DNA from: an uncultured virus (IMG/VR IMGVR_UViG_3300005937_000013)
Taxonomy: Duplodnaviria > Heunggongvirae > Uroviricota > Caudoviricetes
Virus record (IMG/VR): IMGVR_UViG_3300005937_000013
Length of the DNA: 64,000 nt
Strand: one strand, 5' to 3'
Below, one piece after another: positions 31,348-64,000 of the stretch (position 1 is the stretch's first letter; every line of letters starts with the position of its first letter). Below the pieces are notes generated by a model that made no database searches, was not told where the DNA came from, and saw only the letters and a list, made by a program, of their open reading frames with translations. The translations under genes were made by a program, and so were the position numbers.

Positions 31348-31350
31348 GAA

Positions 31351-34311: not shown

Positions 34312-34323
34312 GTTGTCCTCCGA

Positions 34324-35403: not shown

Positions 35404-35471
35404 CTATCACGCCTCCTGTTCGCAGGTGACTAGGAACTGTCGTCGTTCCAGCTTCACGCTGGTATCGGCCA

Positions 35472-36628: not shown

Positions 36629-36677
36629 CTGTCTTCCTCCGAGAGAGGTCGGGTATTGGTGGCGGAGTGTAGCACGG

Positions 36678-41196: not shown

Positions 41197-41200
41197 GACA

Positions 41201-41626
41201 TCAGCCCGGGGTGCCCTTGCCCAACCGGAACGTGAGCTGACCGACCCCAAAGGAGGCGGTGTCGCCGTTGTTCACGTCCTTGGAGGCTGCCAGAGCCGCC
41301 CACGCGTACACCGACCCGGCCGTGGAGGCCGAGTGTAGCGTCTGGTGGGTGACGGGCGAGTTGTCCCAGTCTGCCGAGGCGGTGGGGAAGGTGATCGCCG
41401 ACGTGGTGGTCTTGGCAGCCGGAGCTGTACCCGAGGCCGCCGAGAAGGTGGACGCACCCACTGGTTGGCGGGCGTAACCACCGGTGGTAGGTTCGGTGAT
41501 GTTGGTTCCCGCGTCCGTGGGCGTGGTCGAGCTCAACCCCACGTGGAGGGTGGTCGAGGGAGCCCAGTCGGGGTCCTGAAAGACGTGGTCGAGTATCGCC
41601 TGCTCGATGGCGTCGACGAAGGGCAT
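41201..41626 (-). CDS. Conserved virion protein (tail-fibre/structural family)
   Basis: LHVGL...E...GYARQ...ITFP.A..DW. Confidence 0.65.
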   Translation of the reverse strand: MPFVDAIEQAILDHVFQDPDWAPSTTLHVGLSSTTPTDAGTNITEPTTGGYARQPVGASTFSAASGTAPAAKTTTSAITFPTASADWDNSPVTHQTLHSASTAGSVYAWAALAASKDVNNGDTASFGVGQLTFRLGKGTPG

Positions 41627-41943
41627 CAGGTGTCCTCTCCGTTCTCCGCAGCTGCCGCTGCCCTGAGTTCCTCACGGCGTGCCGCCCGGTCGGCCTCGAT
41701 CTGATCCATGGCCGCCTTCTGGACCGCGTCACGCTCGCGAGCGGAGTCATCCCGCCAGTCGTCGGGTAGGGCGTCGGGATCACCGACGTCCTCGAAGTGC
41801 TCGGGAGCAAGCTGGGCCTGCTCGTAGTCGGAGATGTCCTCGATGGCAGTTCCAGCCTCGAGGGTCACCATCATGTTCGGTTCGTAGTCGTCCCGCTGAG
41901 GGTCGGCTGCCACAGCCACGTTTCGCTTGAGCGTGAACGCCAT
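41626..41943 (-). CDS. Hypothetical protein
   Basis: RBS GGAGG, coupled ORF. Confidence 0.55.
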   Translation of the reverse strand: MAFTLKRNVAVAADPQRDDYEPNMMVTLEAGTAIEDISDYEQAQLAPEHFEDVGDPDALPDDWRDDSARERDAVQKAAMDQIEADRAARREELRAAAAAENGEDT

Positions 41944-41951
41944 CTCGCCTC

Positions 41952-43763: not shown

Positions 43764-43776
43764 GGCGGACAGAGTA

Positions 43777-45378: not shown

Positions 45379-45700
45379 GTACCTGACCCCACCGCTTGAT
45401 CAGGAGGGCGTGCTCGCGGTTCGAGGTGGGGCACAGGTACCGGTTTCCCAGTCCGTTCTTGTCGTAGACCCCCACCCACCCCTCCTCGCCCGCGTACGCC
45501 TCCGCGCAGTCGCTCGTCACGTCCTCACCGTCGAGGAGGATGGTCCAGACGCCCTTCCTGCCACTTCGGTCGCCGAACCTGATCCCGACGTGGTTCTCGT
45601 CCAGTCGGTCTGGGCCTTCGGGCAGGCCAAACTCGTCGGTACGACAGTACGCGCAGCGGATCACTCCTCTCGGGGTCTGAATGGCAGGTTGACGGCCCAC
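45353..45700 (-). CDS. Hypothetical protein
   Basis: GTG overlapping the upstream TAG (TAGTG); CAYC motif. Confidence 0.5.
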   Translation of the reverse strand: MGRQPAIQTPRGVIRCAYCRTDEFGLPEGPDRLDENHVGIRFGDRSGRKGVWTILLDGEDVTSDCAEAYAGEEGWVGVYDKNGLGNRYLCPTSNREHALLIKRWGQVRVICRPAG

Positions 45701-45873
45701 TAGCGTCTCCTCCGGCCCCGACGACGGGTTCGACGACGCCGTCCACCCCTCCGGGTGCGTCGGATCTTGCTCCTCGGTCGGGGCTTGCTCCCGTACTTCT
45801 TGGTCCAGCGGCGAGCGATCCGGGGGTGTCGCGCCCACATGTACCGACGCTGCCTCTCGGAGCGAAACGGCAC
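45700..45873 (-). CDS. Arg-rich 57-aa peptide (not in the ORF track)
   Basis: MPFRSERQRRYMWARHPRIARRWTKKYGSKPRPRSKIRRTRRGGRRRRTRRRGRRRR; both ends coupled to neighbours by TAGTG overlaps. Confidence 0.75.
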   Translation of the reverse strand: MPFRSERQRRYMWARHPRIARRWTKKYGSKPRPRSKIRRTRRGGRRRRTRRRGRRRR

Positions 45874-46100
45874 TATGGCCTCGCCGGGCAGTCCACGTTA
45901 GCCATAAACAGCTCCGACAGGTCCCGGGCACACTCCGGGTGCAGGTGCCAGGTGAGGGGCTCACCTGTGTCGGGGTGCATCATGGTCAACTGACGCCAGT
46001 TCTGGGGGATGCTCGGTCCCCCCTCCGGCACCTGACCCTGAACCTGGCGTCCACAGCGGTCACAGGTGATGGTGACCCTCTGCTCGACGACGATGGTCAC
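45873..46100 (-). CDS. Small Zn-binding hypothetical protein
   Basis: TCDRCG...W...HLHPEC. Confidence 0.6.
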   Translation of the reverse strand: MTIVVEQRVTITCDRCGRQVQGQVPEGGPSIPQNWRQLTMMHPDTGEPLTWHLHPECARDLSELFMANVDCPARP

Positions 46101-46240
46101 CCGCCGACGCGCCTCGTCCCCCGGGCCGTCCCGGGATGCCTGGTGTTCTTCATCCCGCGACGTCCGACGATCGTCTGCTTCTTCCCGTTACCCCCACCGG
46201 TGACACCGGCGGGCTTGTAGCCACCCTTGCGAACTGCCAC
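46097..46240 (-). CDS. Basic 47-aa peptide (not in the ORF track)
   Basis: RBS GAGAGGAG; MAVRKGGYKPAGVTGGGNGKKQTIVGRRGMKNTRHPGTARGTRRVGG; GTGA overlap with the next gene. Confidence 0.65.
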   Translation of the reverse strand: MAVRKGGYKPAGVTGGGNGKKQTIVGRRGMKNTRHPGTARGTRRVGG

Positions 46241-46288
46241 TATCGGCTCCTCTCGCGTGCAATAGGACTTAGCCCCCCTGAGGGTACC

Positions 46289-46539
46289 TCAGCGCCGCCT
46301 CCGACGCCCACCCCTCCGTGACCGGGCCTTGCGCTTCCTGCCGGCCGCGGACATCTTCGCCATCTTCTTCTTCCCGTACTTCTTCCGACCGATGGAGGCC
46401 GCGACGGCCCCCGGGTTCCTCACGTTCCCCGCTTGGCGATGGACCGCTTGAGGGACCGGAACCGTGCCCCGGATCCCAGCTTGGGCTTGCGGCCCTTCCG
46501 CTTACCTCGCGACCTGGATGATCTCCGGCGTCTCGCCAT
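46289..46539 (-). pseudogene. Basic protamine-like ORF interrupted by a -1 shift in a G4 run
   Basis: MARRRRSSRSRGKRKGRKPKLGSGARFRSLKRSIAKRG stops at 46420, but the -1 frame continues NVRNPGAVAASIGRKKYGKKKMAKMSAAGRKRKARSRRGGRRRRR*. Confidence 0.65.
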
Positions 46540-46568
46540 GTCGACCACCTCCTGGCCCGGAGAGGGTA

Positions 46569-47844: not shown

Positions 47845-47995
47845 GGGGCGACAGGGTACCACACCCGCCTCACCAGGGTGTGCTGGTGGCCCTCGCGAGG
47901 CGGGTGCGGTAGGTTGGGAGTGGTGATCCCCCGGGAGGGCGGGTAGCTCAACCGAGGGACCACCGTACCCAGAGGGCGCCCCTCTGGGCAAGACC

Positions 47996-48024
47996 ATGGT
48001 AGCAGAGGAACTGTCGGAGAGCTA
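47996..48024 (-). promoter_or_regulatory. Leftward promoter TAGCTC-N17-TACCAT
   Basis: Same consensus and spacing as the right-arm promoters. Confidence 0.6.
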
Positions 48025-48389
48025 CTACTCCTGTCGGAGAACCAGGGTGGTGCGGGGCCGCAGGCTCGCGAGAGGGTGCGGGGTCGCCGGATCCTGGGGA
48101 ACCGTCGGAGTTCCGACGGGACGGCGTGCCGGCGACCCCTGGTTGTGATCTCGCACGGTAACGGGGCGGCAGTCAGGAGTCAAGCGATAGGCAGAAATAA
48201 ACTGGGAAGGGGAGGCGAAGGTGGGGGTGGACGGAGGCGTCACCGCGGTCCGTGCGCTCCGAAACGTGGCCGTGGGGGTATGGGTCCCTGGCAAGGGGTC
48301 CCAGGCCCCGAGGGGGCCTCGTAGGGGGCTCTCGTGCGCCTCCCTACTCACCCTGGGGGCCGTGCCCCGCTGTGTGCCCTTGTGTCGTG

Positions 48390-48439
48390 TGTGACATATG
48401 TCACATCAAGAAACTTGCTCATTTGTGACATATGTCATA
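48390..48439. promoter_or_regulatory. Two palindromic operators TGTGACATATGTCACA (48390-48405) and TGTGACATATGTCATA (48424-48439)
   Basis: Perfect and near-perfect 16-bp palindromes matching TGTGA-N6-TCACA. Confidence 0.75.
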
Positions 48440-48466
48440 GACAACCCCTTGCTAGGGGTGTACCAT
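48438..48466 (+). promoter_or_regulatory. First rightward promoter TAGACA-N17-TACCAT
   Basis: Sigma-A-like hexamers with 17-bp spacer. Confidence 0.7.
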
Positions 48467-48538
48467 GGGTGTTGGTAAGCCACCCCGATGGGGTGGGGGT
48501 GAGGCAAGGTGCCTCACCCAAAGAGAGAGGAGCACATC

Positions 48539-48901
48539 GTGCCTACCACAAACACGCCCAAGGCCGAGGCCAAGGGTGAGGACAAGCCCGAGAGGTCCAC
48601 TGTGGCCGCAAAGGGTGAGTTCGACAAGGTCCTGGCCCGGGTCAAGGCCGCCGGCAAGGCCGGGATTGGCCTGGCCGACCTGGCCAAGGCAACCGGCCTT
48701 CCCTACCGGGTGGTCCACAACATCACCTGGAGGATGGAGGGCTCGCCCAAGGATGGGGCTCTCCGCAAGCCCGAGGAGAGGGTCATTGTCCGGGTCAACA
48801 CCGACCGCAAGGTCCTCTACGCCATCCGGCCCAAGGGCACCGGGTTCTCCATGAGGGGAATCTACGCCACCAAGGCCCAGGAGGAGGCCCCGGCCAAGTG
48901 A
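48539..48901 (+). CDS. Winged-helix-like DNA-binding protein
   Basis: VKAAGKAGIGLADLAKATGLPYRVVHNITWRM; GTG after AAGAGAGAGGAG. Confidence 0.7.
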   Translation: MPTTNTPKAEAKGEDKPERSTVAAKGEFDKVLARVKAAGKAGIGLADLAKATGLPYRVVHNITWRMEGSPKDGALRKPEERVIVRVNTDRKVLYAIRPKGTGFSMRGIYATKAQEEAPAK

Positions 48902-49012
48902 GGAGTGGGGGCCGCAAGGCCCCCACCCCCACGCTCCTCCACCACCGGCATGGTGGTGGGGGGCCGTGGGGGTCCGGCAGGTAGCCGGGCTCTCGAAGAG
49001 AGAGGAGCAACG

Positions 49013-49404
49013 ATGTCGAGACGATTCTGGGCGGCTGCCTCGGTGGCCGTGGTGGGGCTCGTGGGCCCGGCCGGAGCTTGGGTGGGAACCCGGCTCGACG
49101 GCGAGCCCAGGCGGCCCTACTGCCCGAGCGAGGACTCCTGCCGGCCGGACTACGACGGCGAGAGCAACACCTGGGAGATCGTGGAGGTCACGCCATGACC
49201 GACACGATCCAGGGTGACCTGCGCGAGATCGCGCGGGAGATCCTCCGGGGCGATGATCGCGTCAAGGCGGCACATCGCGTCCTGGACATCGCGGACGAGA
49301 TCGACCGGGCGGTCCGCCCGGAGGACCGATCGGACCTGCCCACGACGGCGGGTCACCGCACCGAGCACTGGGTTCGCCCCGGAGCGGGGGCGACGTGGAT
49401 GTGA
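49013..49404 (+). CDS. Two small ORFs: 49013-49198 (TM plus CPSEDSC) and 49195-49404
   Basis: Extended SD then ATGA coupling. Confidence 0.6.
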
Positions 49405-50074
49405 TCCGCTCCAGCGGTGAGGAGGAGGCGGCCGAGAGGCCGCCCCTCCGCCGCAACCGGTCACACCACGCGTACCGGATGCAGCCACCAGACGGCGTCC
49501 GCGTTCGCGGACGGATGCGGTGGCCCACGCGGACGGGCGGCGCCAGCGGCGTCCGAACGGTGGTCGCCAGCCGGACGCGGATCTCCGCGCTCACCAGCAG
49601 GCGAGCACGGCTGGACGCGACCGCGGACACGCGGGACATCTGGGCGAAGATCGCCCTGTACCGGTGACCAGTGGCGGGGCGGTGACGATGAGGACCACGA
49701 GAGTCCGAAACCACGGACCGAAAGTCCGAAATGATCGGACGGTACTATCCACGGAAAGGGCGACACAGAGACGGCATCCGACGGTCTATCGCCCCCCTTC
49801 TGCCCCTGCTTTCGGATCTGTCAAACATTCTCCCGTTCTTCGCGTTCAAACATCCGAAACCGTCTGTGAACGACGCGGCTCACATGTCCAACGTGTGAGT
49901 TGCCAAACTCCCCTATACGAGGGGATACATAGCGACTTAGTCCACTCACACGTATTATGTGTTACGCCTGGTCACACCACGTGCCGTTCACACGGAAGCC
50001 TAGGACGGAGATCGCATGAGACTACACCGCGTTCCACCCAGAACCCGAACCCGACCCCGAGAGGATCGTCCTGA

Positions 50075-52037
50075 ATGACCACCACCGGCTCCGAGGTCAA
50101 CGACCTCATCCACCACCTGTCCCGGGTCGCCCACGGCCTGGATCCCGACGTCTACGAGACCGCGATGGACACCTCGCTCACGGAGCGACCTGAGCTGATC
50201 GCGCACTACGACGCCCGTCAGCGACTCGCCCGTCGCCTGGTCCGCGTCGCCCACGAGCTGAACTCGATCCTCCCTGATCGACGGCTCACCGACGAGATCG
50301 CGTCGGATGCCCAGCCCAGCGAGTACGGGCGGTCCCACGACGGGATGGCCTGACCACCGAGATCGTCCCGAACGACCACGAGATCGCGTCGGGCGACTGA
50401 CACCATCTGGCTCATCGCCAGGTGGTCCACTACCCTTGGGTGGAGCCCCATCCAGGGCGAGCAAGAGAGAGGAGCGAGATGTACCAACCGACTGACCCGA
50501 CCTACCGGTGTCTCGTCCACGGTCTTCCTGAGGTCGACTACGACACCCGGTGGTCCGAGGGTCCCGAGCCGAGCGTGGCCGAGCTCACCACGGAGCTCGT
50601 CCACCACCTGTGGGCGAAGCTCTTCGGTGAGCGCTGCCCCAACGACTGGTGCGGCCACTGCTACGACGAGTACATGGTCCGGCACCACCCCCTCGGCATC
50701 GAGGACGTCAACCTCGAGGAGCAACACCAGATCGCCATGATCGAGGAGTCCTGTACGTGCGACCAGAACCCCCAGCTCGCGCGTCAACGAGCAAGAGAGG
50801 AGGCGAGAGCATGGGAGAGCGACCGGGCCTGGACGGCAGTCTGGGCGAGAGAGCAGGCGAGGGGATGGTGAACGCCGAGCTCGAGCGGGTGGGGATCATC
50901 ACCCGCGGACGCCGGCTGGCACTCGAGCTGGCCGACATCCTGGACGAGGAGGCCACTCGTGGCATCTCCGTCCAGCACACCTACACCGTCACCACGCTTC
51001 CGACCATGAGGCGGGTTCGCGTCACGGTGGAGCTGGTCGATGGCTGAGCCGATCGACCTGGACAACTGGCCGAGCGGCTGGTGTGCCATCCACGACACGG
51101 TGGAGGCCAACGAGACCCAGCTGGCGGAGGCAGACACGGTCTGCTTCGAGTGCGGGCACGTGTATCCCACCGAGGATGACCTGCTCGCCGAGTGGGTCAA
51201 CCAGTTCGGGCCGACCGAGCGGGTAGCAGCGGAGATCATGTTCTGTCCGCTCTGCCTCCACGACTTCCTGTAACCGACAACAAGCGAAGGAGAAGGAACC
51301 ACGGAACCCAGCGACGACAGGACGCCGAACGAGGTCATGGCAGCCGCCCAGGCCAAGCTCCGGCGTCCCCAGTACGGCACCATGGACCGAGACGCGATCT
51401 GGCGGGAGGCGTCCAACGTCCTCGTCCAGCACTTCGGATCACGGTTCGACGTCCACGTCAACGACGGCAACCACGCCGTGACCATCATCGACCGAGCTCC
51501 GGGCAACCCGGACGAGGTCGGTGGGTCCCGGTGCGTCACGATCCAGCACAACCGACGGGGCACGACCCCGTTCTGACCGAGGAGACCACCGATGAGCAAG
51601 CAGGTGACGCGCGTCACCGTCAAGGCGGGTGGCATCACTGCCACGAACACGGCGGACCATCCCGTGAGGCGAGGCGACAAGCTCGGCATCCGGATCGTCC
51701 GACACGATGACGGCCGGATCACGGTCGCCGTCTACAACCGGGAGTTGGCATGACCGACGATCGGTTCGAGTACCTCCCACCCAACGCCGACCCAGACGAT
51801 CCCACACGCGAGCTCGTGTGGGAACACGACCAGGGGCCGGTCTACATGGTCCTCAACCTCACCGCCGAGGACATCCGGGGCATCCGCTTCGCCCTGGCTG
51901 CTCTCCGGTCGGGTGAGATCTTCGCGGGTGCCCGGGACTCCTTCGAGCTCGGGTTGCGGATCCAACACATCGACGAGTTTCACGCCTCGGCGATCGAGCC
52001 GCTACATCCCGACGAGATGGACGCGGAGGCCGAGTAG
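50075..52037 (+). CDS. Run of small hypothetical genes (50075-50353, 50479-50871, 50865-51047, 51040-51273, 51337-51576, 51592-51753, 51750-52037)
   Basis: Co-oriented, RBS or stop/start overlaps; several Cys/His Zn motifs. Confidence 0.6.
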
Positions 52038-52123
52038 GAGATTTGCACGGTATCCAGGTGTCCACTACCATGGGTGGTGGATGGACCACAAGGTCCGAAC
52101 GACAAAGAGAGAGGAGCGAGACC

Positions 52124-53188
52124 GTGAGAACGGTAGAGCTAGACGAGCTGGACGGCTTCACCAGCCGCTTCATGCACGTGGTCGTCGCGCACGATCCCTT
52201 CATGGATCCGTACGTGGCCGAGGGTGGGATGATCCGCACCGTGTTCGCGTGGGGTCACCCGGTCCTCAAGGTGACCGGCCCCGGGGTCATCATGGATAAG
52301 GAGACCGGAGGCGAGCAGCGCCCCGCGTCGTGGCAGTGGCTCGGTCTGGACGACGCCATCGAGCCGGAGGATCTCACCCGGCAGCGGGAGGTCGTGTCCA
52401 ACCTCCTGGTCGACCTCGGCATGGTCGGCCAGGACTACGAGGACGACTTCGAGAACCTCGCCGGTGCGCTCGGTAACTACGAACGTGCCGAGGGGACGAG
52501 CACTCCGCTCATGACCCACGAGGCCATCGCGTTCGACACGTTCATCGAGCACCTCGGTGAGCACGACCTGCCGGCGTGGGTGGACACCATGGTCCACCGC
52601 ACCCCACTGACGGAGGAGGAGCGGTGAGGGCCACGTACGAGGTCTGGGGCGAGCAGCACAGCGAGCCGGAAGAGCGGCCCTACCACCGGCGTGCCGGGGC
52701 AGGCGTGACCGTCTGGAGCCGCGAGCACGAGAGTCACTCCTGGACAACGCCGAGTGCCCGCATCGCCCAGCTCACCGCCGAGCTCATCAAGGAGTACCTC
52801 GGCCACGGGACAACGGCGACCCAGACGCCGCACACCATGCTGCACGACCTCCAGCAGCTCGTCACGACGGCCCAGCGGTACGCGATGGAGTGGGCCGTGG
52901 ACGACCACCTGGCTGGCGGTGCAGCAGACCTCGAGCCGGACGACGGTGACGAGGAGGACGAGAAGGTGTCCTGGACCGATCCCTGGACGGAGGACGAGGG
53001 CTACCGGCCCACGTAGACAGAAGGAGAGCGGGCGGATGTTGTTCACGGCGGGACTGCTCGCCCTGTACCTAGCCTTCGAGCTGGTAGGGTGGCTACGAGA
53101 CCGACGCAAGATCGCGCAGTGTGGGGACTGCGAACAGACCGACGGGGAAGTTCCCCTCGGACAAGAGAGAGGAGAAACGGAGACATGA
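52124..53188 (+). CDS. Hypothetical genes 52124-52627, 52624-53016 and 53036-53188 (small TM)
   Basis: Extended SD, GTGA coupling, AAGGAG RBS. Confidence 0.6.
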
Positions 53189-53688
53189 ACCTCCGAAAGC
53201 TAGCAACCAGCGGGCTCGTGGTGGGCGTCCTTGCCCTGGCGGGTGCCGCGTGTGGTACGGATGACAGCGACGACTCGGCAGCGAGTGCCGACACGACCGA
53301 GCAGGAGTCCACGACGACCACCGAGATCGAGGACCCCACGTCCACGGTCGAGGACTGGAAGGCGTCCGAGGACGGGCTGCTCACCGCCGACTGGGCGTAC
53401 TACTCGGTGGGTCAGATGGATGCGCTCGCCGCAGCCGCCGCTGAGTTCGACGTGAGCCAGGTCATGAGCGTCGCGCTGGACACCCAGCTCGAGTACGAGA
53501 CCACCTACAAGGACGTTCCCGAGGCGTTCGCCAACGCCCCGGACGAGGTCCTGAGCGAGGAGGGCCAGGCCGGCTACGCCGGGGTCCTCGCCGCGATGGA
53601 GGCGTACTCAGTCGGCGACATCGAGACCGGCAACCAGCTGCTCACCGAGAGCACGCAACACATCAACGCCGCTGCCGCGCGGCTGTAG
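53185..53688 (+). CDS. Lipoprotein
   Basis: MNLRKLATSGLVVGVLALAGAAC-GTDD lipobox, Thr/acidic linker. Confidence 0.75.
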   Translation: MNLRKLATSGLVVGVLALAGAACGTDDSDDSAASADTTEQESTTTTEIEDPTSTVEDWKASEDGLLTADWAYYSVGQMDALAAAAAEFDVSQVMSVALDTQLEYETTYKDVPEAFANAPDEVLSEEGQAGYAGVLAAMEAYSVGDIETGNQLLTESTQHINAAAARL

Positions 53689-53795
53689 TTCTCATCGGTC
53701 TCCCAGGCTAGCTCACCGCTTTGTGGTGTGCTAGCTTGGGGAGATTGCCCCCCAGACCCCTGGGCGGCAAAGGCGAAACAGAGAGGACAGGCGGT

Positions 53796-54137
53796 ATGTC
53801 AAGCAAGGTGCGGGTAGCGGCCGCGGCGGTGGCTGCTCTTGCAATCCTGGGACTGGCGGCGTGTGGAGACGACGATGACGACGTCACCACGCAACCGGCA
53901 GTTCCGGCAGCTCCAGCTCCGGCAGATGTCTCGGGAAGCGATCAGCATCTCGAGAACCTGGCGGATGACGGCGCAGTCAACGCGTTCGAGGCAGGCAACC
54001 AGGCCGCCTCGGATCGACTGCAGGGTCAGGCCGACCAGATCGCCGAGGCTCAGGCCAAGGCGAAGGCGGCCCAGGCTGCCGAGGATCTCGAGCGTCAGGC
54101 TCACCTCGACGGCCAGGCTCGCACGTACGGCCAGTAG
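53796..54137 (+). CDS. Lipoprotein
   Basis: MSSKVRVAAAAVAALAILGLAAC-GDDDDD. Confidence 0.75.
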   Translation: MSSKVRVAAAAVAALAILGLAACGDDDDDVTTQPAVPAAPAPADVSGSDQHLENLADDGAVNAFEAGNQAASDRLQGQADQIAEAQAKAKAAQAAEDLERQAHLDGQARTYGQ

Positions 54138-54146
54138 CCCCACGAC

Positions 54147-54191
54147 CGTAGGGCACCGGCCTCTGACGCCCTTCGGGGCTGGTGCCCTGCG
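54147..54191 (+). terminator. Long hairpin after the lipoprotein gene
   Basis: CGTAGGGCACCGGCC / GGCTGGTGCCCTGCG arms, internal cUUCGg element. Confidence 0.5.
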
Positions 54192-54266
54192 CCGGCTATC
54201 TGTCATGCGTGTGTGTTGGGTGGCCCGCGCAGGGAGGTTCCCTGCGGAAAGGTGCAACTAACGCAC

Positions 54267-55805
54267 ATGAAACGGAAACTGGTAGGAGGAGCCGCGATCC
54301 TGTTGCTGATCGTGGGTGCCCTCTTTGCGTCGTCGTGGTCAGCCGGAGCGAACCTCCCTGGCAACGACTTCGAGGGCAACGACGGCAACATCGCGGTGAA
54401 CACTCCAGGCAACGTCGACTGGCTGACGGTCGATGACCCGACGGTGGGCGTGGACCTGCCGACGGGCCAGACTGACAACTCGTTCGGGCAGGGCTCGAAG
54501 GAGGCCAACGTCAACGTCACCGTGGTCACTGGCTCGATCCCCAACTCCAAGGCCGACCTGGCCAGGTTCGGGGTCGCGTCACAGACCATCGACGACCAGA
54601 CGTACCTCCAGCTCTTCTGGACCCGCGCCAACCAGTCCGGCACGGTGAACTTCGACTTCGAGCTCAACAAGCTCCAGCAGCCGGATCTCACCACCGCTGG
54701 ACCTAAGACGCTGGTCCGGTCACCGGGCGACCTGCTCATCAACTACGCGTTGCTGGGTGGGTCACAGTCGCCGACGTTGACGGTGTTCACCTGGAACGGC
54801 ACCACCTGGGCGGACGAGACGGTGCTCGGATCCTCCGTGAGCGAGGGCGCGATCAGCACAGCGACGCTGACCGACCCTCTGATCGGTGGGTCTGTCCCCG
54901 CGTCCCGGTTCGGTGAGGCGAACATCAACCTCACCGCGGCTGGGCTCATCGACCCCGATGAGTGCGAGGGCTTCAGCTCCGCGTACGTGAAGTCGCGGGC
55001 CTCCGGGATCAACTCGGAGATCAAGGACTTCATCGCTCCTCAGCACGTGAACATCTCGAACTGTGGCACGATCGTGATCGAGAAGGTGACGGATCCCAGT
55101 CCTGACCCGACCGACACGGCGTTCGACTTCACCCTCACCGGTGGGGACTCGGCCCTGAACGAGGCGTTCTCGCTGAAGAACGGGGAGAACTTCACCGCGG
55201 CGGGTGTCCAGGCGAGCGACGGCTACGCCGCCGCCGAGACGGTGCCGGCCAACTGGGAACTGACGTCGTTCACCTGTGACGACGGCTCCCCGGTGACCAA
55301 CATCGACGTGTCCGTCGGCGAGACAGTGACGTGCACGGCAACCAACACGCTCCAGCAAGGTGCGCTCGTGATCCACAAGGACCGCAAGCACGCTGCCGCT
55401 GAGGGCACTGACCCGGTGCCTCATCCTGGCGTGAGCTTCACCGTGTCCGGCGTGGCCGACCCGGCCGTGACCGATGACAACGGTGTGGCCTGCGTCGACG
55501 GCCTCCTGCCTGGTGACTACACGGTCACTGAGCAGGTGCCCGCGGGGTACCACAGCGCCGATGCGGAGCAGCCCTACACGGTGGTGAACGGCACAACCTG
55601 TGCCACCGCCACCGCGTTGGAGTTCCACAACACACCGCTCACCGACGTCACGGTGAGCGTGAACTCCCAGGTTGATGGTGGCACCGCGTCCACCATCGAC
55701 TGCGGTGATGGCCCGGTTGCGACCGACGCCAACGGTGATGGTTCCCTCACCCTGCCTGACCTCGAGCCGGGCACCAAGGTGTGCGAGATCGTCATCGATC
55801 CATGA
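54267..55805 (+). CDS. Secreted protein with SpaA/prealbumin-like (pilin-type) Ig domains
   Basis: Signal peptide MKRKLVGGAAILLLIVG; GTIVIEKVTDP...FDFT...Y...E...W...C...TCTATN; GDYTVTEQVPAGY...FHN. Confidence 0.72.
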   Translation: MKRKLVGGAAILLLIVGALFASSWSAGANLPGNDFEGNDGNIAVNTPGNVDWLTVDDPTVGVDLPTGQTDNSFGQGSKEANVNVTVVTGSIPNSKADLARFGVASQTIDDQTYLQLFWTRANQSGTVNFDFELNKLQQPDLTTAGPKTLVRSPGDLLINYALLGGSQSPTLTVFTWNGTTWADETVLGSSVSEGAISTATLTDPLIGGSVPASRFGEANINLTAAGLIDPDECEGFSSAYVKSRASGINSEIKDFIAPQHVNISNCGTIVIEKVTDPSPDPTDTAFDFTLTGGDSALNEAFSLKNGENFTAAGVQASDGYAAAETVPANWELTSFTCDDGSPVTNIDVSVGETVTCTATNTLQQGALVIHKDRKHAAAEGTDPVPHPGVSFTVSGVADPAVTDDNGVACVDGLLPGDYTVTEQVPAGYHSADAEQPYTVVNGTTCATATALEFHNTPLTDVTVSVNSQVDGGTASTIDCGDGPVATDANGDGSLTLPDLEPGTKVCEIVIDP

Positions 55806-55849
55806 TGTGGCGGGTGGACGCCTAGCTGTCGAGGCGGACACCTTCTACA

Positions 55850-55885
55850 GCCACGGGGAGGGGCCCCCCCGCCTCTCCCCGTGGC
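55850..55885 (+). terminator. Hairpin ending the surface-protein cassette
   Basis: GCCACGGGGAGGGG / CCTCTCCCCGTGGC arms. Confidence 0.55.
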
Positions 55886-55956
55886 ACCACCTAGCACACC
55901 GAGAAGGGGGGTGCTAGGCTGGGGGTAGGAAGCCAACAAGAGAGAGGAGCCAAGCG

Positions 55957-58944
55957 ATGCAAGGCTGGAAGCACGTCCGTCTTAGCCCGAGGGCTAGGGC
56001 ACGACAACTGGTGGGTGCGCTCGTCAGCGACCTGAAGGACGAGTGGCCTGGTGACGGGTGGGCACCTGTGCTCATCCGCGTCCAGAGGGACGGGGTCAAC
56101 TACTCCGTGAGGGTGGTGAGAGACCGATGACTGAGCGACGCAACAACGACAAGGTGGCTAACGTCCTCGAGGCGGCAGCGTACATGATGGCTGACTCTCC
56201 CGAGGTGGAGCACCGCGAGAAGGCGAGCAAGCTCTTCGAGGCCGCCAGGATCATCGGGGACTGCCCCCAGGACTACCTCTACCCGGAGCTTGTTCCTGAC
56301 GACCACCTTCCCCTCGAGGACAAGATGGTCGCGTTCATGAGCGAGATCGCGAGGATGGCCGATGGTCTGGACGGGTGGACCAACGGTGTCCTCCACCGCA
56401 AGGTCCGAACCTACGAGGGTCACCCGTACCACGTCATCATCACGGACCTCGATCTGGGGGCCTAGTTGCCGTTGCCGTCGTACATCCCGACGAACAAGTT
56501 TCTGATGGAACGGGCGTTGCGCAACCTGCGTCACGGACCAGGGGAGTGCCCCACGTGTGACCAACACCGAGCAGCGCTCGAGCAGGCGATCTATAACTGG
56601 GACCATCCTGGTCTCGCGTCAAGACAACCCAAGGAGAGACATCCGATGGCTACCACAGCCGAACAGGTCCAGACTGACACCGACACCCCACCCAGGCGGG
56701 GTACCATCGCCTGGTACGAGCAGGAGGTCCAGCGACTCAACGTCGCGCTCGAGCAGGCAAGGGACGTCGACGAGGACAGGATCCAGAACCTCGAGATCGA
56801 CCGTTCCGACCTCCGGGAGGAGCTGCGACAGGAGCAGGCAAGCCGGGAGGCCCAAGACACCCGCATCGCCCAGCTGGACGAGATGGTCACCCAGCTCACC
56901 GCGGCGGTGACCGACAAGCAGGCTGAGCTCGAGGCCCAGAACCAGCGCATCGAGCGGTTCACCACGATGCTCCACGATGAGGCTGACTCGCGGGGGCTCT
57001 GTTCTGACTATGATCGCATCGTCGCGCGGGCTGGACTCATTCCCCGGAACCAGCAGTGGACCGTCGAGGTCAGCGTCGAGTTCGACATGACCCAGACCGT
57101 CGAGGCACGGGGTGAGGACCGGGTGCGCGAGATGGTCAACGATGATGAGTGGATCAGGAACATGATCATGCGGGCGTTCGATCCCTACAACCATGGCACC
57201 ACCTACGAGGATCTCGAGACCGAGGTCAGCGTCTACATCGCCGAGTAAGGAGAACCGATGACACTGAACGACTACATCGCGGAGCTGGAGACGATCCGCG
57301 ACCAGAACCCCGAGGCGGAGGACGCCGAGGTCACCGACGAGAACAACAATCCGTTAGGTTCTCCCGAGTGGTTCCCGGCCTCGGGTGATGAACAGGCCGC
57401 TGTGGTGGTGTGTGCCCATGCCTGAGACCCCGATCAAGCGCCCGCTCAACGGGGAGCGGGTGCGGATCCTCTACCAGCTGTGGGGGCTCCAGAAGAAGCC
57501 GCGCGAGATGGTGGCCGTGTACGTCGCGTTTGACCTGGACCGGCGGGAACACGTCCTCTCGGGCCGGCCCAAGTTCGGAACTGCTGTGGTCCACGAGAGG
57601 AACGTGATCGCGATGTACCACACCGAGCGGGACATCATGCAACCCGAGATCTATCGAGGAGCGTTGCCAAGGCCATGATCGAGTACGACGACACCCTCTA
57701 CGGCAAGGTGGGTGACCGGGTGCGTCTCACCAGGGAGGCCGGCGACGAGTGGCACAGGCTACACGCCGGAGCCACGGGTACCATCACCTACGTCGACGGG
57801 GTGGCGACCAGACACGTCGAGTGGGATGACGGATCCAAGCTCGGGATCCTACCCGACATAGACCGATGGGAGGTCATCGGATGAGCGAGCAGAACAACGA
57901 GAACGTCCAGCACGTCGCTGAGCGGCGCCAGACTGCCATCGACGTCGTCATGGCCCTGGCCCTACCGGAGTCGGTCCACGAGGCCAACGCGGTGAGACTG
58001 GTGGGTGGCATCCTGATGGAGCGGGCCCGGATGGTGGACAACGGTGACGAGTACGGCATCCAGATCTGGTGGCCCGACGGGTGGGTGAGCGAGTTCGACA
58101 TCGGAGAGACCAAGTGGCGGGTGACGATCGAGGAGGTCGGGTGAAGCAACGCATCGAGGAGCTCGGCTGGGAGCTGGGTCAGACCGTGGTCCTGGGTGAC
58201 CGGACCAGAGGCCTGTTCTACGTGGTCGAGGACCGCGGACCGATCGAGGTCATCGAGATCACCCCCGAGGTGTGGCAGGCGATCGTGACGCTTAGGATCG
58301 CCAAGGACGCGAAGGAGTGGGAGGACGATCCCGCCATGCTCGACCAGCTGGTGCCCTACGCGGAGATCCTGGCCAGGGCCGAGGGTCACAGGGACCACGG
58401 GCTCGTGCTCGAGCGGGAACTGCGGTTGTGAGGATCTTTGTCCGGGTGGTCTGTACCGACTCCTCCGTCGAGGATCTTGACCACATCTCGAACATCAACG
58501 TTCGGGAGACCGGCGAGCTGTGGTTGTTCGAGGCACCGGGATCAAAGCCGAGACGGCTGTTTCTTCCCGGTGAGTGGGAGTGGTTCGAGGCGAGCATCCT
58601 ACAACGGGAGGGCGTATGAGCCAGAGGATCGAGTGCCCGATCTGCCACGAGACGTTTGACACGTGGGCTGACCTCGAGCTGCACGTGCCGTGCCCAGACG
58701 AGAGGATGGAGAACGATGACGAGGAGGAGTGATGACCTGGCCGCGCGTGAGCATCATCGACGCACCTGACGGGATGTGCGCTGCCCAGGTCGAGATGGAG
58801 GCCGGGAGAACCACAGCTGACCGGGGACGTGGTGGCCGTGCTAGGTACCACGCCATCGGCAGGCCCGCCAACACCGAGGTCCAGGCTCTCCGTCACCTGA
58901 TCGAGGACCTGACGATCGCCATCACAGGCGAACAACCCATCTAG
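55957..58944 (+). CDS. Operon of small genes (55957-56130, 56127-56465, 56646-57248 coiled coil, 57258-57425, 57418-57678, 57675-57884 DUF4314-like, 57881-58144, 58141-58431, 58428-58619, 58616-58732, 58732-58944)
   Basis: Continuous ATGA/GTGA coupling; 57675 has KVGDRVRL...GATGT...VEWDDGS.L. Confidence 0.62.
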
Positions 58945-59001
58945 CTCACCGCCACCCCACCTGCTAGGGTGGGGTAGGCCAAGAGAGAGAGGAGCCGTTA
59001 G

Positions 59002-61050
59002 TTGGCCGACAACATGCCCGTGACGTGTCAGCTGTGTGGAGAGCCCTTCCCCGACAAGGACGCGATCTGGGACCACGAGTGTCCTGAGTGGGACCGGATA
59101 CGAAGAACGGCGATGCCCACACTGGCTGCGTACCGAAACCTCATCCACTGGTATGAGAACGCGCCCGGACCAAGGTGGGCGAAGAGACTCATCATGTGGG
59201 GCGTGAGACAGGCAGTGCCCGAGCGTGAGGATCCTGAGCTGATTGACGCTCTCCTCAAGCTCCGGCCCAGACAGGTGTTTCGGATGGAGAGGAGACGCGC
59301 GAGATGGGGTCTCATCGACACCGGAGCAAGAGACGATCTCGACAAGGCAAGGCGCCAGTTCGAGATCGAGACCGAGCTAGAAGGGAGAGCCGATGACGAC
59401 TGGCACGCCGCAAGGCGTACCGTGGATGGGAGACGGAGACGAAAGCGACTCCGCAGCATCCAGGGCGGGCGGCAGGAGTAGCCATGGCCGTTGAGTACCG
59501 CTACCAGGAGTGCCGCGAGTGGAACCACCTGTGGCACCGGGTCCCTGACACAATGGACTGGCACCCGAACCGGGTGTTCTACTTCAGACGGGTGAGCCAG
59601 TGCTCGGAGTGTCTGACCATCCGGATCCACCTGCTGGACGCCTACGGCTACCCGCAGGGGCTCTACTACAAGCACCCCCACGACTGGAAGTGGCCCGGTG
59701 ACCACGCTCCCAGCAAGGCGGAGCTCCGCAAGATGACCATCGACGCGAGTATGAAGGAGGCTCGTGATGCCCGGAGAACCCGAGCAAGAAAGACCGCAAA
59801 GAAGTCCTAAGCCGCCGGGCTCCATGCGTGAGGCGGGGATCATCAACCGGTACCTCAAGGCGGTCGAGTCACAGCACGACCTCAGGGCCGGCGCGGCAAG
59901 CATCCAGACGCAGATCGACAGGATCAGTGACCGGCTTGCCCACAACACCCTCACCGGCGTCCAGCGGCTTGACCTCGTGGTCAGGCACCAGGTGCTCGTC
60001 CAGCAGCTCAGCGCCTACGATGCTGAGCTCGAGGAGGAGTTCGTCGCGATCGCGAAGGAGTGGGGCGAGAGGCGAGGTGCCACCTACGCCAGCTGGCGAA
60101 CCATGGGTGTCTCACCCGACGTGCTCGAGCGAGCAGGAATCAAGGAGAGCGGAACATGACTGACGACTTTGCCACCACTGAGGAGATCGACCAGGGCGTA
60201 CCGGATCTACCCCGCCCACTGGTGTTCCTCGTGGAGGAGCAGATCTGTGTCGGCAACCTCCAGGACTACGCCAACGCCGAGAAGCAGGGCCACTACGCCG
60301 GGCTCGACGTCAAGGGACCGTGGCAGGTGTTCGTGAACTGGGAACGGAACATCCTCAACCGCGATACCGGCGAGCACTATGACGTGGGCATCCCCATCCT
60401 TCGGCGCCGTGAGCCCACCGTGCGGGGTCAGGACAACCTGGAGCTCGACTTCCGAACAGTGTGGATGGAGCTGGACGGGGAGACAGCTACGTACCAGCTC
60501 GACCTCCGTGCATGACCCGGGCGTCAGATCCATACGAGCGTAAGATCGCCAAGGATACCGTCGTCTTTCCGTACTACGAGATCACCGAGCTCCTCGCCCT
60601 GATCGACGGGGCTAGGATTGCGGCTGAGCTCGAGGACCATCCGCTGTTCCTCGACGACATCGACTGGCAGCTCATCGCGAAGACGAGGCGGCGGCTCGAC
60701 AACCGGGCCAGGGTGGTCGAGAAGCGGGTAGAGCAACACCTAGCGAGGAAGCGAGATACATAGTGCGATTTGACTGGGGTGACCGGTGGCGAGCGATGCG
60801 GACGCGGTGGCGTCAGGACGCCGAACAACGGAGACGATCAATGGGTGAGAACGAACTGAGGTTGACGCAGTGCGTGTGCTACAGGGTGATGACCTGTCAC
60901 TACTGCCACGAGCAGCTAGTAGAGGACGAGCTGAACGTGAGCGACGACCAGGCCTGGGCGGACTACGTTCTCCATGGTCCGGTCATCGACCTACACATCC
61001 TCGCCCACGCCTACTGTGCGGAGGGCCAGGACGAGGTGGAGAGGGCTTAG
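59002..61050 (+). CDS. Operon of small genes (59002-59481, 59484-59810, 59824-60159, 60156-60515, 60512-60763, 60763-61050)
   Basis: Promoter plus extended SD; coupled ORFs; Zn motifs in several. Confidence 0.6.
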
Positions 61051-61107
61051 CTCACCGCCCCACCACCTGCTACCATGAGTGTGAGCCAAGAGAGAGGAGC
61101 AAGCGAG

Positions 61108-61815
61108 ATGTCCATGAACGATCCTGCTGAGCTCGTTGAGTCTGAGCTCGGCCCCATCCTGTCCATCGTGCGGGACCGGCTCGTCACCGAGCAGCTGCCC
61201 ATGTACCGGACCACCGCGGTTGACCCGGTGGCCGGCGAGATGTGGTCAGTCGTCTTCGAGAGGACCGACCCCGAGATCGACTGGGAGGGTACGCTCACCC
61301 AGGAGGAGGCCGTCCGTCTCCTCCTGCACAAGGTCGGCCACCTGACCGACCTCATCGACCAGCTGGGCCGTCTCGAGGCCCAGACCCACGCCCTGCTACA
61401 CACGCTGGTGGGGCACGAGCACGGGAACGGTGAGTGATGTTCCCCTGCCGAGTTCTGTGGTGGACCGTGATGCTGTACTGGGATGACATCGTGATCGTGT
61501 GGGTGTGTGAGCACGGCAACGCCCACATGCTCGACTTTGGTGTCGGGCAGGCAAGGGAGATCTTCCGTGGTGGGTCCACGTAAGGTTCGGATCGACGAGG
61601 AGGTCATCAACGGTGACATCACGGTCACCGAGGTGATCATGCGGAAGTCGAACATGAAGCGCCCCGACCTGCTCTGGTACGAGCTCTGGGTCAAGATCAG
61701 GGGTCACCGAGAGGAGATCCGACTCGCGATCTTCATGCGTCCCAGCGACCTGAAGATCAACGCGAGAAGGATCAGCACCAACCACGACGTACCCATCCGG
61801 AGTTTCCTCCCGTGA
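61108..61815 (+). CDS. Small genes 61108-61437, 61437-61583 and 61567-61815
   Basis: Promoter plus extended SD; coupling. Confidence 0.55.
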
Positions 61816-61854
61816 GGGGCTGGTGCTACACTGGGTGCCACAAGAGGGAGGAGC

Positions 61855-61971
61855 GAGTCGGTGTGAGCCTCCCGGGGTTGGTCGTATGTTCGTGTGAGCC
61901 ACGAACGGCGCGGTCTGGAGTCTCCTCTCTCTTCCGTGCCGCGGCCAACTCCGGCAGCCTCATACCGACTC
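61855..61971 (+). ncRNA. Predicted three-way-junction RNA with an anti-AAGAGAGAGGAGA loop
   Basis: Four nested helices with only G-U wobbles on the + strand; own promoter TTCCTC-N17-TACACT at 61804-61832. Confidence 0.7.
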
Positions 61972-61993
61972 ACCCAAGAGAGAGGAGAACCAC

Positions 61994-62215
61994 GTGACGT
62001 TTACCGTCATCGTATCCGAGCACAAGTACGAGGACATGACCGACGACCAGATCGCCGAGTTCGGGCTTGTGGACTCCAACGCGAGCCCGTCGGGGTTTCT
62101 ACGGATCAGCCACGTCGTAGGTCCCAAGAACCACCGGATCGGTCGGGTCGATCCCATGGAGAACTTCGGGACGATCTCGGGTGTTCGCATCACCTGGGTC
62201 GAGGAAGGTCACTAG
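61994..62215 (+). CDS. Hypothetical protein
   Basis: GTG after the extended SD at 61976. Confidence 0.65.
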   Translation: MTFTVIVSEHKYEDMTDDQIAEFGLVDSNASPSGFLRISHVVGPKNHRIGRVDPMENFGTISGVRITWVEEGH

Positions 62216-62271
62216 CACTCCGTTCTGCCAGGTGGTAGGCTGGAGTCACACAAGAGAGAGGAGCGGTTGTA

Positions 62272-63033
62272 ATGCCCGACGAGAACAACGGGGTGGACGA
62301 GTCCATCCTCGAGAAGATCCAGAAGGTCCTGAACCTCGCCGAGAAGGCGGGAACCCAGGGCGAGGCCGAGGCAGCGTACGCGAGAGCCACGGCGCTCATG
62401 ACCAAGTACGCGGTCGACCAGGTCATGCTCGATGCCCTGGGCGAGGGTGGCAAGAGAGACGAGATCACCGCGATGGCGATGCCCTACGGGTCCACCTACT
62501 GGCAGGCGACACGGTATGTTCTGATCGAGCTAGGGTTAGCCCTCGGTCTCCAGCCGGCAGTGAGTGACTACTACGACAGGAAGAACGGTCACCTGGACTG
62601 GTGGGGCTGGAAGTCCGAGCTCAAGACTGCCGAGCTGATGTGGGCGAGTCTCGAGATCCAGATGATGCAGGCGGCCGGCGTTCACATGCGGGTGGCATCC
62701 AGGGTCACTGACCGCGAGGAGCGGTTCAAGGAGAAGCGGTCGTTCATCATCGGCTTTGGCCAGGCGGTGGCCAGGCGAGTTCGTCAGGAACGCCTCGAGG
62801 CACGGATCAAGGAGAGCCAGGCACGGGGGAGCTCAGGTCTCCTGCCCGCCCTGGTGAGCCGGGACGACCAGTTCCGTGAGTTCATCGACCAGAGGTTCCG
62901 AAAGGGGAAGGATCTTCGACCCCCCAAGATCCACGAGGACGGTTACCTTGGCGGCCAGCGGGCAGGCCAGACAGCGGACCTCAACGCACCGGGGGGACGT
63001 GTCGGTGGCCGACGAGAGGAGTTGGAACGGTGA
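62272..63033 (+). CDS. DUF2786-family protein
   Basis: ILEKIQKVLNLAE...EAEAAYARATALMTKYAVD; SFIIGF; GY..G..AG..ADL. Confidence 0.78.
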   Translation: MPDENNGVDESILEKIQKVLNLAEKAGTQGEAEAAYARATALMTKYAVDQVMLDALGEGGKRDEITAMAMPYGSTYWQATRYVLIELGLALGLQPAVSDYYDRKNGHLDWWGWKSELKTAELMWASLEIQMMQAAGVHMRVASRVTDREERFKEKRSFIIGFGQAVARRVRQERLEARIKESQARGSSGLLPALVSRDDQFREFIDQRFRKGKDLRPPKIHEDGYLGGQRAGQTADLNAPGGRVGGRREELER

Positions 63034-63072
63034 CAACCACCCGAGACATACCGTTGGGGGTAGTCTCCACCC

Positions 63073-63953
63073 ATGCCCTTGCCACCGTGGGTCGCAGACG
63101 TAGCGACGACCATCACCGACGTCAAGAACCTGGTCCTGCTCGAGGGGAGCATCAGGGGCGAGCAGGTGCTCATCCTCGCCAGGCTCAGCACGCTCGAGAT
63201 CGAGGAGAGGATGGAGCTGAAGCTCGTGGCCCTCATCCTCGATGCCGACATGATGAAGGAGGTAGACATCGATCCCGAGGAGACAACCGTGTACTCACTG
63301 GAGGCACTTGTCGATGACAGAGACTCCGTGGTGGCGGCGGCTCCTCACCCCACCTGAGGCACGTGGCGCAGTGACGGATCCTAACGGTGACGAGCTGCGT
63401 ACACAGGTCCCCCTGGAGGACGGCGGCTTGGCGGTTGCACGGCCCTCCGGGGGGACCCCATCCCCCCGACATCTACAGAAACGGAGACAGAGGCGTATGA
63501 ATGAGGGAAGCGTGTTGATCAGCCTCGAGCTGCGAGCTGATCCTGACGTGATGGCCCACATCGCGCACATCACGGAGGCCGCGCTGGCGGCGGACGCCAC
63601 CATCACCGAGATCCGAAAGGCACCCACCGTGATGGGTGAGCTCGAGCGGGGCAACATGAAGGCGTTTGCCGAGGCCATCAAGAAGGACAACTCGGACGAG
63701 ACTCCCGCTGTGGGTCGTCGTGGTCGTGGCAGTGGTTAGCCAGGGGTGGGAGTACCGTGGTCCGCGTAGGTGGGTGGAGGGGATCCCGTTCGGGTCCTGG
63801 ATGGAGTCCGGTGAGCACTACACCCAGCCCGTCGGATCCAAGCCCTTCCACGAGGACGACGTCATCCTCATCCCCGAGGACAAGTGTCACGAGACCACGC
63901 TGGAACACCTCCGACGGCTCCGGAGACGACTCCGGGAGGTCAAGCGAGGGTGA
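63073..63953 (+). CDS. Small hypothetical genes (63073-63357, 63497-63739, 63732-63953)
   Basis: Co-oriented ORFs; starts uncertain. Confidence 0.45.
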
Positions 63954-64000
63954 CCAGCGGACCCTGCGGTTGTGGTGGTGGGTGACCGTGCTTACCATCG

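Follow-up and report, generated by a model that had tools for sequence, protein, structure and literature searches.

The DNA analyzed in this work, hereafter the window, is a 64-kb stretch out of about 70 kb of DNA from an uncultured phage of the Caudoviricetes (IMG/VR record IMGVR_UViG_3300005937_000013), and we focused on an element predicted to fold as RNA at positions 61855-61971 of its + strand. The window has a G+C content of 62-70%; its left arm (1-48000) carries genes on the - strand, including the large terminase at 43777-45378, and its right arm carries + strand genes from about 48500, nearly all of them without a known family in Pfam or PHROG. The element lies between two small + strand genes, and neither of them had a match in these databases. 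The upstream gene, at 61507-61815 (102 aa as listed), is gene-like in codon usage, with log-odds of +0.37 per codon, and the downstream gene, at 61994-62215 (73 aa), scored +0.49 per codon. From 5' to 3', the intergenic stretch 61816-61993 holds a promoter-like site, a first copy of a Shine-Dalgarno motif (SD1), a GTG-TGA start-stop, the fold, a second motif copy (SD2), and the GTG at 61994. SD1 (61842-61853, + strand) is a variant copy, AAGAGGGAGGAG, and is followed solely by GTG-TGA at 61861-61866, a one-codon open reading frame (ORF) placed 7 nt after it. SD2 (61976-61987, + strand) is an exact copy found 6 nt 5' of the GTG at 61994.

The minimum free energy (MFE) fold of the + strand at 61839-61993 contained four stems: P1 (61855-61867/61959-61971, 13 bp), P2 (61872-61885/61941-61954, 14 bp), P3 (61888-61894/61900-61906, 7 bp), and P4 (61907-61913/61934-61940, 7 bp). 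These are exactly the stems listed in an initial annotation of this DNA, which had read the region as a phage small RNA (sRNA) antisense to the ribosome sites of early genes. Two extra base pairs at 61869-70/61956-57 lie between P1 and P2, where the helix is broken by two C.C 1x1 mismatches (61868/61958 and 61871/61955), and P2 leads into a three-way junction with P3 and P4. The 155-nt stretch had a free energy of -82.6 kcal/mol (z -5.89), and the 117-nt element alone -77.6 kcal/mol (z -9.78); in each case, none of 200 shuffled sequences was as stable. The - strand of the element only reached -64.1 kcal/mol, 13.5 kcal/mol poorer than the + strand, and the five non-Watson-Crick pairs within P1-P4 were all G-U on the + strand. 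In agreement with the initial annotation, a + strand RNA is favored, and its statement that every non-Watson-Crick pair is G-U was accurate within the stems; the two C.C mismatches had gone unmentioned.

A sliding scan of 6390 windows of 120 nt (step 20, mean -44.2, standard deviation 7.8) did not list the element because no scan window caught both P1 arms; at -77.6 it would equal the seventh-best scan window, and windows at or below this value were found at 48861-49020, 1461-1580, 5781-5900, and 55801-55920. Very stable hairpin runs without T-runs were observed at 48905-48991 and 55806-55885 (-94 and -92 kcal/mol, z about -4.3), after genes and just 5' of motif copies, and one arm of each is CU-rich (CUCCUCC and CCUCUCCCC), similar to part of the sequence displayed in the loop of the element, which is described below.

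The tip of P4 is a 20-nt loop (61914-61933) in the MFE fold, and its 3' part, 61921-61933, is UCUCCUCUCUCUU, the complement of AAGAGAGAGGAG(A); we refer to it as the anti-motif. The exact match on the - strand, 61922-61933, confirms the perfect complementarity claimed initially and is the sole one in the 64 kb, and the same stretch is the only one on the + strand with at least 11 of 12 bases identical to the anti-motif. The motif itself, AAGAGAGAGGAG, occurs on the + strand in nine exact and three one-mismatch copies, all of them within 48521-62463, i.e., in a single orientation and in the non-structural arm only, with no sense copies in 1-48000. When both strands were counted at no more than one mismatch, 13 matches were obtained vs 0.56 expected, and none of 100 shuffles got to 13. 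Start codons were found 4-10 nt after the nine exact copies and two of the one-mismatch copies, 61842 being among the latter with only its start-stop, and the copy at 62452 is within a gene and is not a start site. Ten copies precede ATG, GTG, or TTG codons opening ORFs of 57-253 aa, which bears out the earlier count of at least nine right-arm genes. Besides SD2, these gene-preceding copies, of 12 nt each, start at 48521, 48996, 50463, 52105, 53163, 55938, 58983 (one mismatch), 61088, and 62252 on the + strand, and span 48521-62263. Collectively, the observation of a hairpin with an anti-motif loop is real and far beyond chance.

From motif to start codon the distance is steady, but anything between 9 and 54 nt separates the -10 element from the motif; therefore, the motif belongs to translation and not to the promoter. 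The actinobacterial 16S rRNA tail is CCUCCUUUCU-3', and pairing with it is limited to AGAGAGGAG, nine of the 12 bases of the motif, vs 12 of 12 with the loop. The first three motif bases lie beyond 16S pairing with this tail, and are therefore conserved for another reason.

Next, the promoter-like sequences of the right arm were compared. A pattern private to the phage, YTAGCW-N18-TAnnnT-GGGTG, is found upstream of eight motif copies, and sequence alignment placed the first base of each -10 at 48461, 50431, 52066, 55915, 58965, 61071, 61827, and 62236 on the + strand; at several of these sites a CTAGC...GCTAG inverted repeat spans the -35 and the base of the -10. A generic sigma-70 scan missed this family. 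The pattern was also observed on the - strand at 48024-47995 and about 53710, with one leftward copy facing the structural arm. The putative promoter of the element, 61803-61837, has a -35 TTTCCT (61803-61808), an 18-nt spacer ending in TGC, a -10 TACACT (61827-61832), and GGGTG (61833-61837), and the TGA stop of the upstream gene (61813-61815) falls within it. The initial annotation had credited the element with its own consensus promoter at 61804-61832, and this was too strong: the -10, TGC, and GGGTG agree with the family, but TTTCCT departs from YTAGCW. In a leave-one-out weight matrix, which was built from only seven sites and is overfitted, this site scored -5.6 vs 29.5-44.1 for the seven others. 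In the divergent region between the arms, a 16-bp palindrome, TGTGACATATGTCACA, occurs as two copies 18 nt apart (48384-48445) that overlap the first rightward promoter, TAGACA-N17-TACCAT; the paired palindromes look like operators for a repressor.

The coding status of the stretch was assessed by codon usage. The frame from GTG 61863 to TGA 61997 is open for 44 codons, SD1 lies 9 nt upstream of it, and its stop overlaps the next start as GTGA, which could suggest a small protein of 44 aa coupled to gene 61994-62215. This frame scored -0.29 log-odds per codon vs +0.47 (standard deviation 0.09) for 35 training genes, and no in-frame 44-codon window of those genes scored as low. Moreover, its start codon is buried in P1 and its product had no PHROG match. 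The small-protein reading was rejected on codon usage, and we give it a nearly negligible probability; the stretch is non-coding by this measure. The Rfam search that had been suggested for it returned no family: there were no matches at the gathering score over the whole window, and a permissive scan of 61750-62050 gave generic long-hairpin matches only, the best with 23.8 bits vs a cut-off of 168. ARAGORN made no tRNA, tmRNA, or tRNA-like call across the window. There is no T-run after 61971 and a consensus terminator scan found no terminator there, so that 61855-61971 lacks the U-tract which, with a G+C-rich hairpin, makes an intrinsic terminator; this is a weak test, as the other putative terminators of the phage are likewise without T-runs. 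The discrete free sRNA of the initial annotation is thus not indicated by the sequence.

The 5' part of the intergenic stretch resembles a gene start. SD1 with the next 13 nt, including the GTG (61842-61866), was 84% identical over 25 nt to the cassette start at 52105-52129, which opens the 167-aa gene at 52124, and an AGA there reads as the TGA stop at SD1. This segment looks like a decapitated cassette start. With 61842-61975 removed, the remaining sequence would have the layout of the other cassettes (-10, 9 nt, motif, 6 nt, GTG); the element thus seems to have been inserted into an ordinary cassette or to have arisen by rebuilding one. An inverted duplication of the motif and its flank was tried as the origin of the loop and was rejected: the anti-motif sits in the loop and not next to an arm, and the absence of a partner for it within the hairpin speaks against any simple inverted duplication. 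A miniature transposable element (MITE) or repeat family was rejected too, since the hairpin arms are unrepeated in 47900-64000. The identity to the cassette at 52105 and the standard cassette left by the deletion are what one would expect of a neutral relic, in which recombination of cassettes left the SD1-GTG-TGA behind along with scrambled sequence that folds by chance, and purifying selection cannot be shown for a phage that is a singleton. A z-score of -9.8 and five G-U pairs out of five on the + strand are unexpected for scrambled sequence; the unrepeated arms and the parallel hairpins of other phages described below also argue against a relic, which we consider very unlikely.

The pairing behavior of the loop was then computed. 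As separate molecules, the loop and its targets formed duplexes of -19.7 to -26.5 kcal/mol at 12 sites, and the net energies after opening the loop (6.5 kcal/mol) and the target were -9.5 to -19.5 kcal/mol at these sites. The duplex energies of 11 motif sites were -21.0 to -26.2, vs a mean of -11.0 and a best value of -19.5 for 38 left-arm start regions, which were taken as longest-ORF starts, some of them possibly wrong. The interaction of the loop with the gene leaders proposed in the initial annotation is thus computed to be both favorable and selective for motif sites.

Within one molecule the outcome was different. The loop (61921-61933) is complementary to SD2 (61976-61988) at 13 of 13 bases, and a switch in cis on the copy at 61976 had been the alternative proposal. 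Masking of SD2 in cis at equilibrium was rejected, as the loop:SD2 pair probability was about 0 and forcing the pairing cost 24 kcal/mol (-68.0 vs -92.2). In the full leader, the loop and SD2 are predicted to be free (SD2 unpaired with a probability of 0.8-1.0 at nine of its 12 bases), SD1 to be partly paired, and the GTG of SD1 to be wholly buried in P1 (unpaired probability of 0 at 61861-61863). Folds of the growing transcript had SD1 caught by CCUCCC (61868-61873), next briefly by the loop, and last the final fold; SD1:loop was the MFE structure for transcripts ending at 61933-61936. A cis-only switch could still work if a ribosome caught on SD1/GTG-TGA held the 5' arm open, so that the loop would pair with SD2 and shut gene 61994-62215; otherwise, P1-P2 would form and leave SD2 free. 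In line with it, SD2 starts 42 nt past the loop with a complementarity that extends to 16 of 18 bases, the 13-bp loop:SD2 helix enters the MFE structure when 61842-61880 or 61839-61885 is kept unpaired, and SD1 still pairs fully with the loop in spite of its A-to-G change, which is read as G-U. When only 61842-61876 was kept open, however, P2-P4 reformed and the loop was free; moreover, ribosome loading looks poor, since at all transcript lengths tried the GTG of SD1 was buried and SD1 partly paired. The 4-nt link between P1 and SD2 also seems, by its geometry, too short for SD2 to be brought to the far end of an approximately 35-bp helix, and the parallel hairpins of other phages, which have no nearby downstream motif, cannot work so. 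As loop:SD2 pairing is about 0 unless the 5' arm is held open, the pure cis switch was ranked below trans pairing, and we regard it as unlikely.

The explanation that we favor is that gene 61994-62215 has a non-coding leader RNA, 61839-61993, which would be transcribed from the cassette promoter at 61803-61832 or arise by read-through of upstream transcription. During its synthesis, the leader would fold into a very stable Y shape in which the vestigial first ribosome site (SD1 and GTG-TGA) is buried and the real site, SD2, stays free. Its tip would display the 12-13 bases exactly complementary to the start-associated Shine-Dalgarno motif and serve as an anti-ribosome-site decoy. In this role it would resemble the 3' end of 16S rRNA and compete with ribosomes for about ten right-arm messages. 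The pairing would be mainly between molecules, with the RNA acting as part of the leader or after processing. That the loop acts by base pairing with the motif on RNA, mainly in trans, is in our judgment a serious possibility, held at a little less than an even chance; that the RNA is produced, accumulates, pairs inside the cell, and has a repressive effect, we infer from the features above. The early-to-late switch suggested in the initial annotation fared less well, as the putative promoter is of the same class as those of the targets and the weakest of them, so that the sequence offers no built-in delay.

The loop could also have no pairing role, and the element would then be an RNase III-type site, a 5' stabilizer, a terminator or attenuator without a U-tract, or a put-like antitermination RNA. 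P1-P2 is a near-continuous helix of 29 bp, which is sufficient length for RNase III, and the hairpin runs at 48905-48991 and 55806-55885 are other strong hairpins without T-runs after right-arm genes. An exact antisense 12-mer, on the other hand, is expected about 0.008 times in 128 kb, and here it falls in the single large loop; in addition, a hairpin between a promoter and a gene with a free ribosome site is odd for a terminator, and no Rfam family was matched. The remaining evidence on such a structure-only role comes from cluster K mycobacteriophages and is given below.

No relative of the phage was found in the searches made. The nearest phage proteins to the window terminase (218 records) and to its DUF2786 protein (63 records) were less than 60% identical, and the records came mostly from phages of Actinobacteria, which suggests an actinobacterial host. 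Blastn of 61400-62400 against 50,697 phage records and tblastn of the 530-aa ORF against the phage collection gave no match; no relative of the DUF2786 neighbor protein was found in viral contigs, and against 5.8 billion proteins its sole true match, among 1656 candidates, was itself. In the viral contigs, searches with the motif strings returned 30 and at least 119 single chance matches, with the array on no contig, and the anti-motif/gap/motif pattern returned none. In metagenome contigs, this pattern had five matches; as the pattern reads as a palindrome, what it picked up were perfect palindromes, none of them related. A record of 19,231 bases in the viral contig collection (G001) was 100% identical to window 27323-46553, stopping short of the element, and it appears to be the same virus assembled twice. 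The sequencing runs listed as containing the phage were two rhizosphere DNA runs and no RNA run; one of the two may be its source, the other has identical low-depth pieces, and no variant letters were seen. Two observations on the right arm are added here. The 530-aa protein (54213-55805) contains domains typically seen in pilins and adhesins of Gram-positive bacteria, namely SpaA/prealbumin-fold domains (Pfam E 2e-7 to 4e-7). An inverted repeat with perfect 16-nt arms, for which about 0.03 such pairs are expected by chance, has its arms 11.8 kb apart, at 50357-50372, just past the stop of gene 50075-50353, and at 62165-62180, inside gene 61994-62215.

Start-associated sequences (SAS) comparable to the motif have been described in cluster K mycobacteriophages, in papers that are cited here for the portions accessible. 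In 2011, a lone copy in the opposite orientation, starting no gene, was noted; the ligand of the motif was left open as protein or RNA, and DNA-binding proteins were favored for the inverted repeats upstream (PMC3203893). The purpose of the motif was called ill-defined in 2024 (PMC11373665), and a 2025 survey states that its role still requires experimental verification. The stem-loop and terminator passages of the 2011 paper do not concern the reverse site (PMC3203893), the accessible text of the 2025 survey does not mention a hairpin, antisense, or a reverse or opposite orientation, and no description of a hairpin or an antisense role for the reverse site was found in the accessible literature on SAS and cluster K.

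We then analyzed the cluster K genomes, where the motif is GGGATAGGAGCCC. Adephagia (JF704105) has 16 forward copies and one reverse copy, and the latter is the 10-nt tip loop of a coding-strand hairpin at record positions 58661-58713 (-32.9 kcal/mol, z -6.2; z -6.67 for the wider fold). This hairpin is in the 432-nt gap of genes 92 and 93, past a T-tract terminator, and had blastn matches in 126 phage records. When nine diverse members were aligned, 98.7% of 151 cells were paired, two pairs were changed on both sides, each one-sided change was to or from G-U, and seven of the nine members retained the loop CCUCCUAUCCCC. In the shuffle control, the covariation score was reached by 12 of 500 alignments, and the number of double changes by 81 of 500. 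In Kratio (KM923971), the CCUCCUAUCCCC loop was found on a different 16-bp stem (record 797-841), near the left end, within an annotated ORF and just 5' of the terminase gene. The reverse SAS copy is the tip loop of a coding-strand hairpin in Adephagia, Amelie, Niklas, and Kratio. Reverse matches with two mismatches were detected at Aminay 36071, Fionnbharth 33348 and 39446, Amelie 8188, and Ekdilam 48146, and Boilgate has neither the motif nor a reverse copy.

By analogy, a cluster K reverse copy in a hairpin tip supports an anti-ribosome-site RNA, and this reading would explain why a lone antisense copy is found at hairpin tips in two unrelated phage groups. For a structure-only role, the coincidence would have to be repeated with another motif and on two different stems. 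Lambdoid phages have antitermination RNAs where the long late transcript begins. A 2024 RNA-seq study reports that late transcription "appears to initiate" in the Adephagia gap between genes 92 and 93, although the accessible text does not state the position of the start relative to the hairpin (PMC11373665). The location is a point for a role of the structure itself. Moreover, SirPhilip retains the hairpin without the anti-motif loop, so the stem has a value of its own. Weighing these data, we assign a low probability to a purely structural element. A site acting at the DNA level, where the motif would be an operator bound either way round, or the palindrome a cruciform or an origin, would fit with the protein ligand that the 2011 paper left open and with the DNA-binding proteins that it favored for the upstream repeats (PMC3203893). 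It is hard to reconcile with a motif that keeps its distance to start codons but lies 9-54 nt from the -10, or with stems, both here and in cluster K, whose wobble-readable mismatches are all G-U on the + strand, and we find it highly improbable.

Several results weigh against a loop that pairs with the motif in trans. In the window, four of the anti-motif bases are predicted to be paired within the loop, weakly (61917-20 with 61927-30 in the MFE fold; unpaired probability of 0.02-0.17 at 61927-61930 and 0.83-1.0 at the other nine bases). The promoter of the element appears to have the poorest -35 of its family and to belong to the same class as the promoters of the proposed targets; therefore, a single leader would have to serve about ten messages against an excess of ribosomes. 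As no terminator follows the fold, the element is a leader element of gene 61994-62215 and not an established free sRNA. No related phage, from which conservation of the element could be judged, was found in the collections searched. In cluster K, the covariation support for the hairpin is modest. The loop of Ekdilam has drifted to UCCUCCUUCCCCU with its 17 forward motifs unchanged, and SirPhilip has an unrelated loop on its hairpin, with 15 forward and 0 reverse motifs. Forward and reverse motifs numbered 19 and 0 in Pixie, 17 and 0 in Unicorn, and 11 and 0 in TM4, and the single reverse copy of ZoeJ precedes gene 40, which runs leftward, in the manner of any ordinary site. Outside cluster K, AnnaSerena, a Microbacterium phage of cluster EF, has ten forward and no reverse copies of its own motif at two mismatches or fewer; start-associated systems can therefore exist without an anti-motif. 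The expectation that loop and motif would co-vary in relatives was not borne out in cluster K, where the loop does not track the motif (Ekdilam and SirPhilip). The anti-motif is an optional partner of start-associated systems, and its loop and the motif are without visible co-variation.

A broader proposal is that start-associated systems of actinobacteriophages carry a dedicated RNA antagonist, a leader hairpin with an anti-motif loop that masks all early messages at once, and that 61855-61971 is an independently evolved example; we put this forward as a speculation, and a rather doubtful one. Over-conserved private ribosome-site motifs are frequent on the non-structural genes of phages of Actinobacteria, and their purpose has been open since 2011. 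If the proposal is true, it would explain why the motif is conserved beyond 16S pairing and what the lone reverse site of 2011 is used for, and the motif would be an address label through which one RNA regulates a whole gene set after transcription. The window by itself is no proof, but it led to a directly testable hairpin in cluster K. Adephagia is tractable, as it has Mycobacterium smegmatis mc2 155 as host and published RNA-seq and can be engineered, and Ekdilam and SirPhilip provide natural loop variants. Should the proposal prove wrong, 61855-61971 would still stand out as a leader structure of unusual stability and without a known class.

Finally, the system was compared with those already known. 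The likeness to cluster K SAS includes an asymmetric 12-13-nt motif with a Shine-Dalgarno core, placed a few nt before starts and in the non-structural arm only. In cluster K, a subset of copies is preceded by promoters with an inverted repeat, to which the promoter-like sites here, several with CTAGC...GCTAG, may correspond. Cluster K genomes have 10-24 copies, conserved beyond 16S pairing (PMC3203893). The motif here is AAGAGAGAGGAG and not GGGATAGGAGCCC, no homology of genes or hairpins was detected, and the arms are divergent here but co-linear in cluster K. The hairpin also differs, as it is a 117-nt three-way fold between two sense copies, whereas that of cluster K is a simple hairpin of 45-53 nt with no sense copy near. 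Therefore, the system appears to be SAS-type by its working and outside the cluster K lineage. The SAS-like motif of cluster EF is found, as here, at ribosome-site positions, in ten 13-nt copies with a conserved sequence upstream (PMC7302621); AnnaSerena differs in being without a reverse copy.

The principle, antisense masking of ribosome sites, is already known, e.g., from c4 of P1; for the one-to-many design via a shared start-associated motif, and for its link to the SAS puzzle, no description was found in the accessible parts of the literature searched. The c4 antisense RNA of P1/P7 and the CI RNA of satellite P4 are structured leader RNAs of the operons that they control, with loops complementary to downstream ribosome-site regions; they also act in trans, and are released by RNase P processing. 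The element would likewise be encoded in a leader, with a loop that is complementary at 13 of 13 bases to SD2, a ribosome site lying 3' of it in that leader; unlike them, it matched neither the Rfam C4 model nor any other family. The role of c4 RNA in ant control has been documented (PMC8201110). Only one or two targets, private to them, are controlled by c4 and CI, whereas the motif here is common to about ten genes. RsaE/RoxS of Firmicutes and 6C of Actinobacteria are host sRNAs whose C-rich loops cover the G-rich ribosome sites of several mRNAs. The element shares with them a pyrimidine-rich loop on a stable stem that pairs with Shine-Dalgarno regions, but those RNAs have their own terminators and use short C-runs on generic sites, whereas here a phage leader has a 12-13-nt exact match to an extended site private to the phage. 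RegB of T4 is an endoribonuclease that cuts GGAG and turns off a set of early messages. As with RegB, a phage would shut off early messages via the Shine-Dalgarno sequence, with the difference that an RNA would mask the site instead of a protein cutting it.

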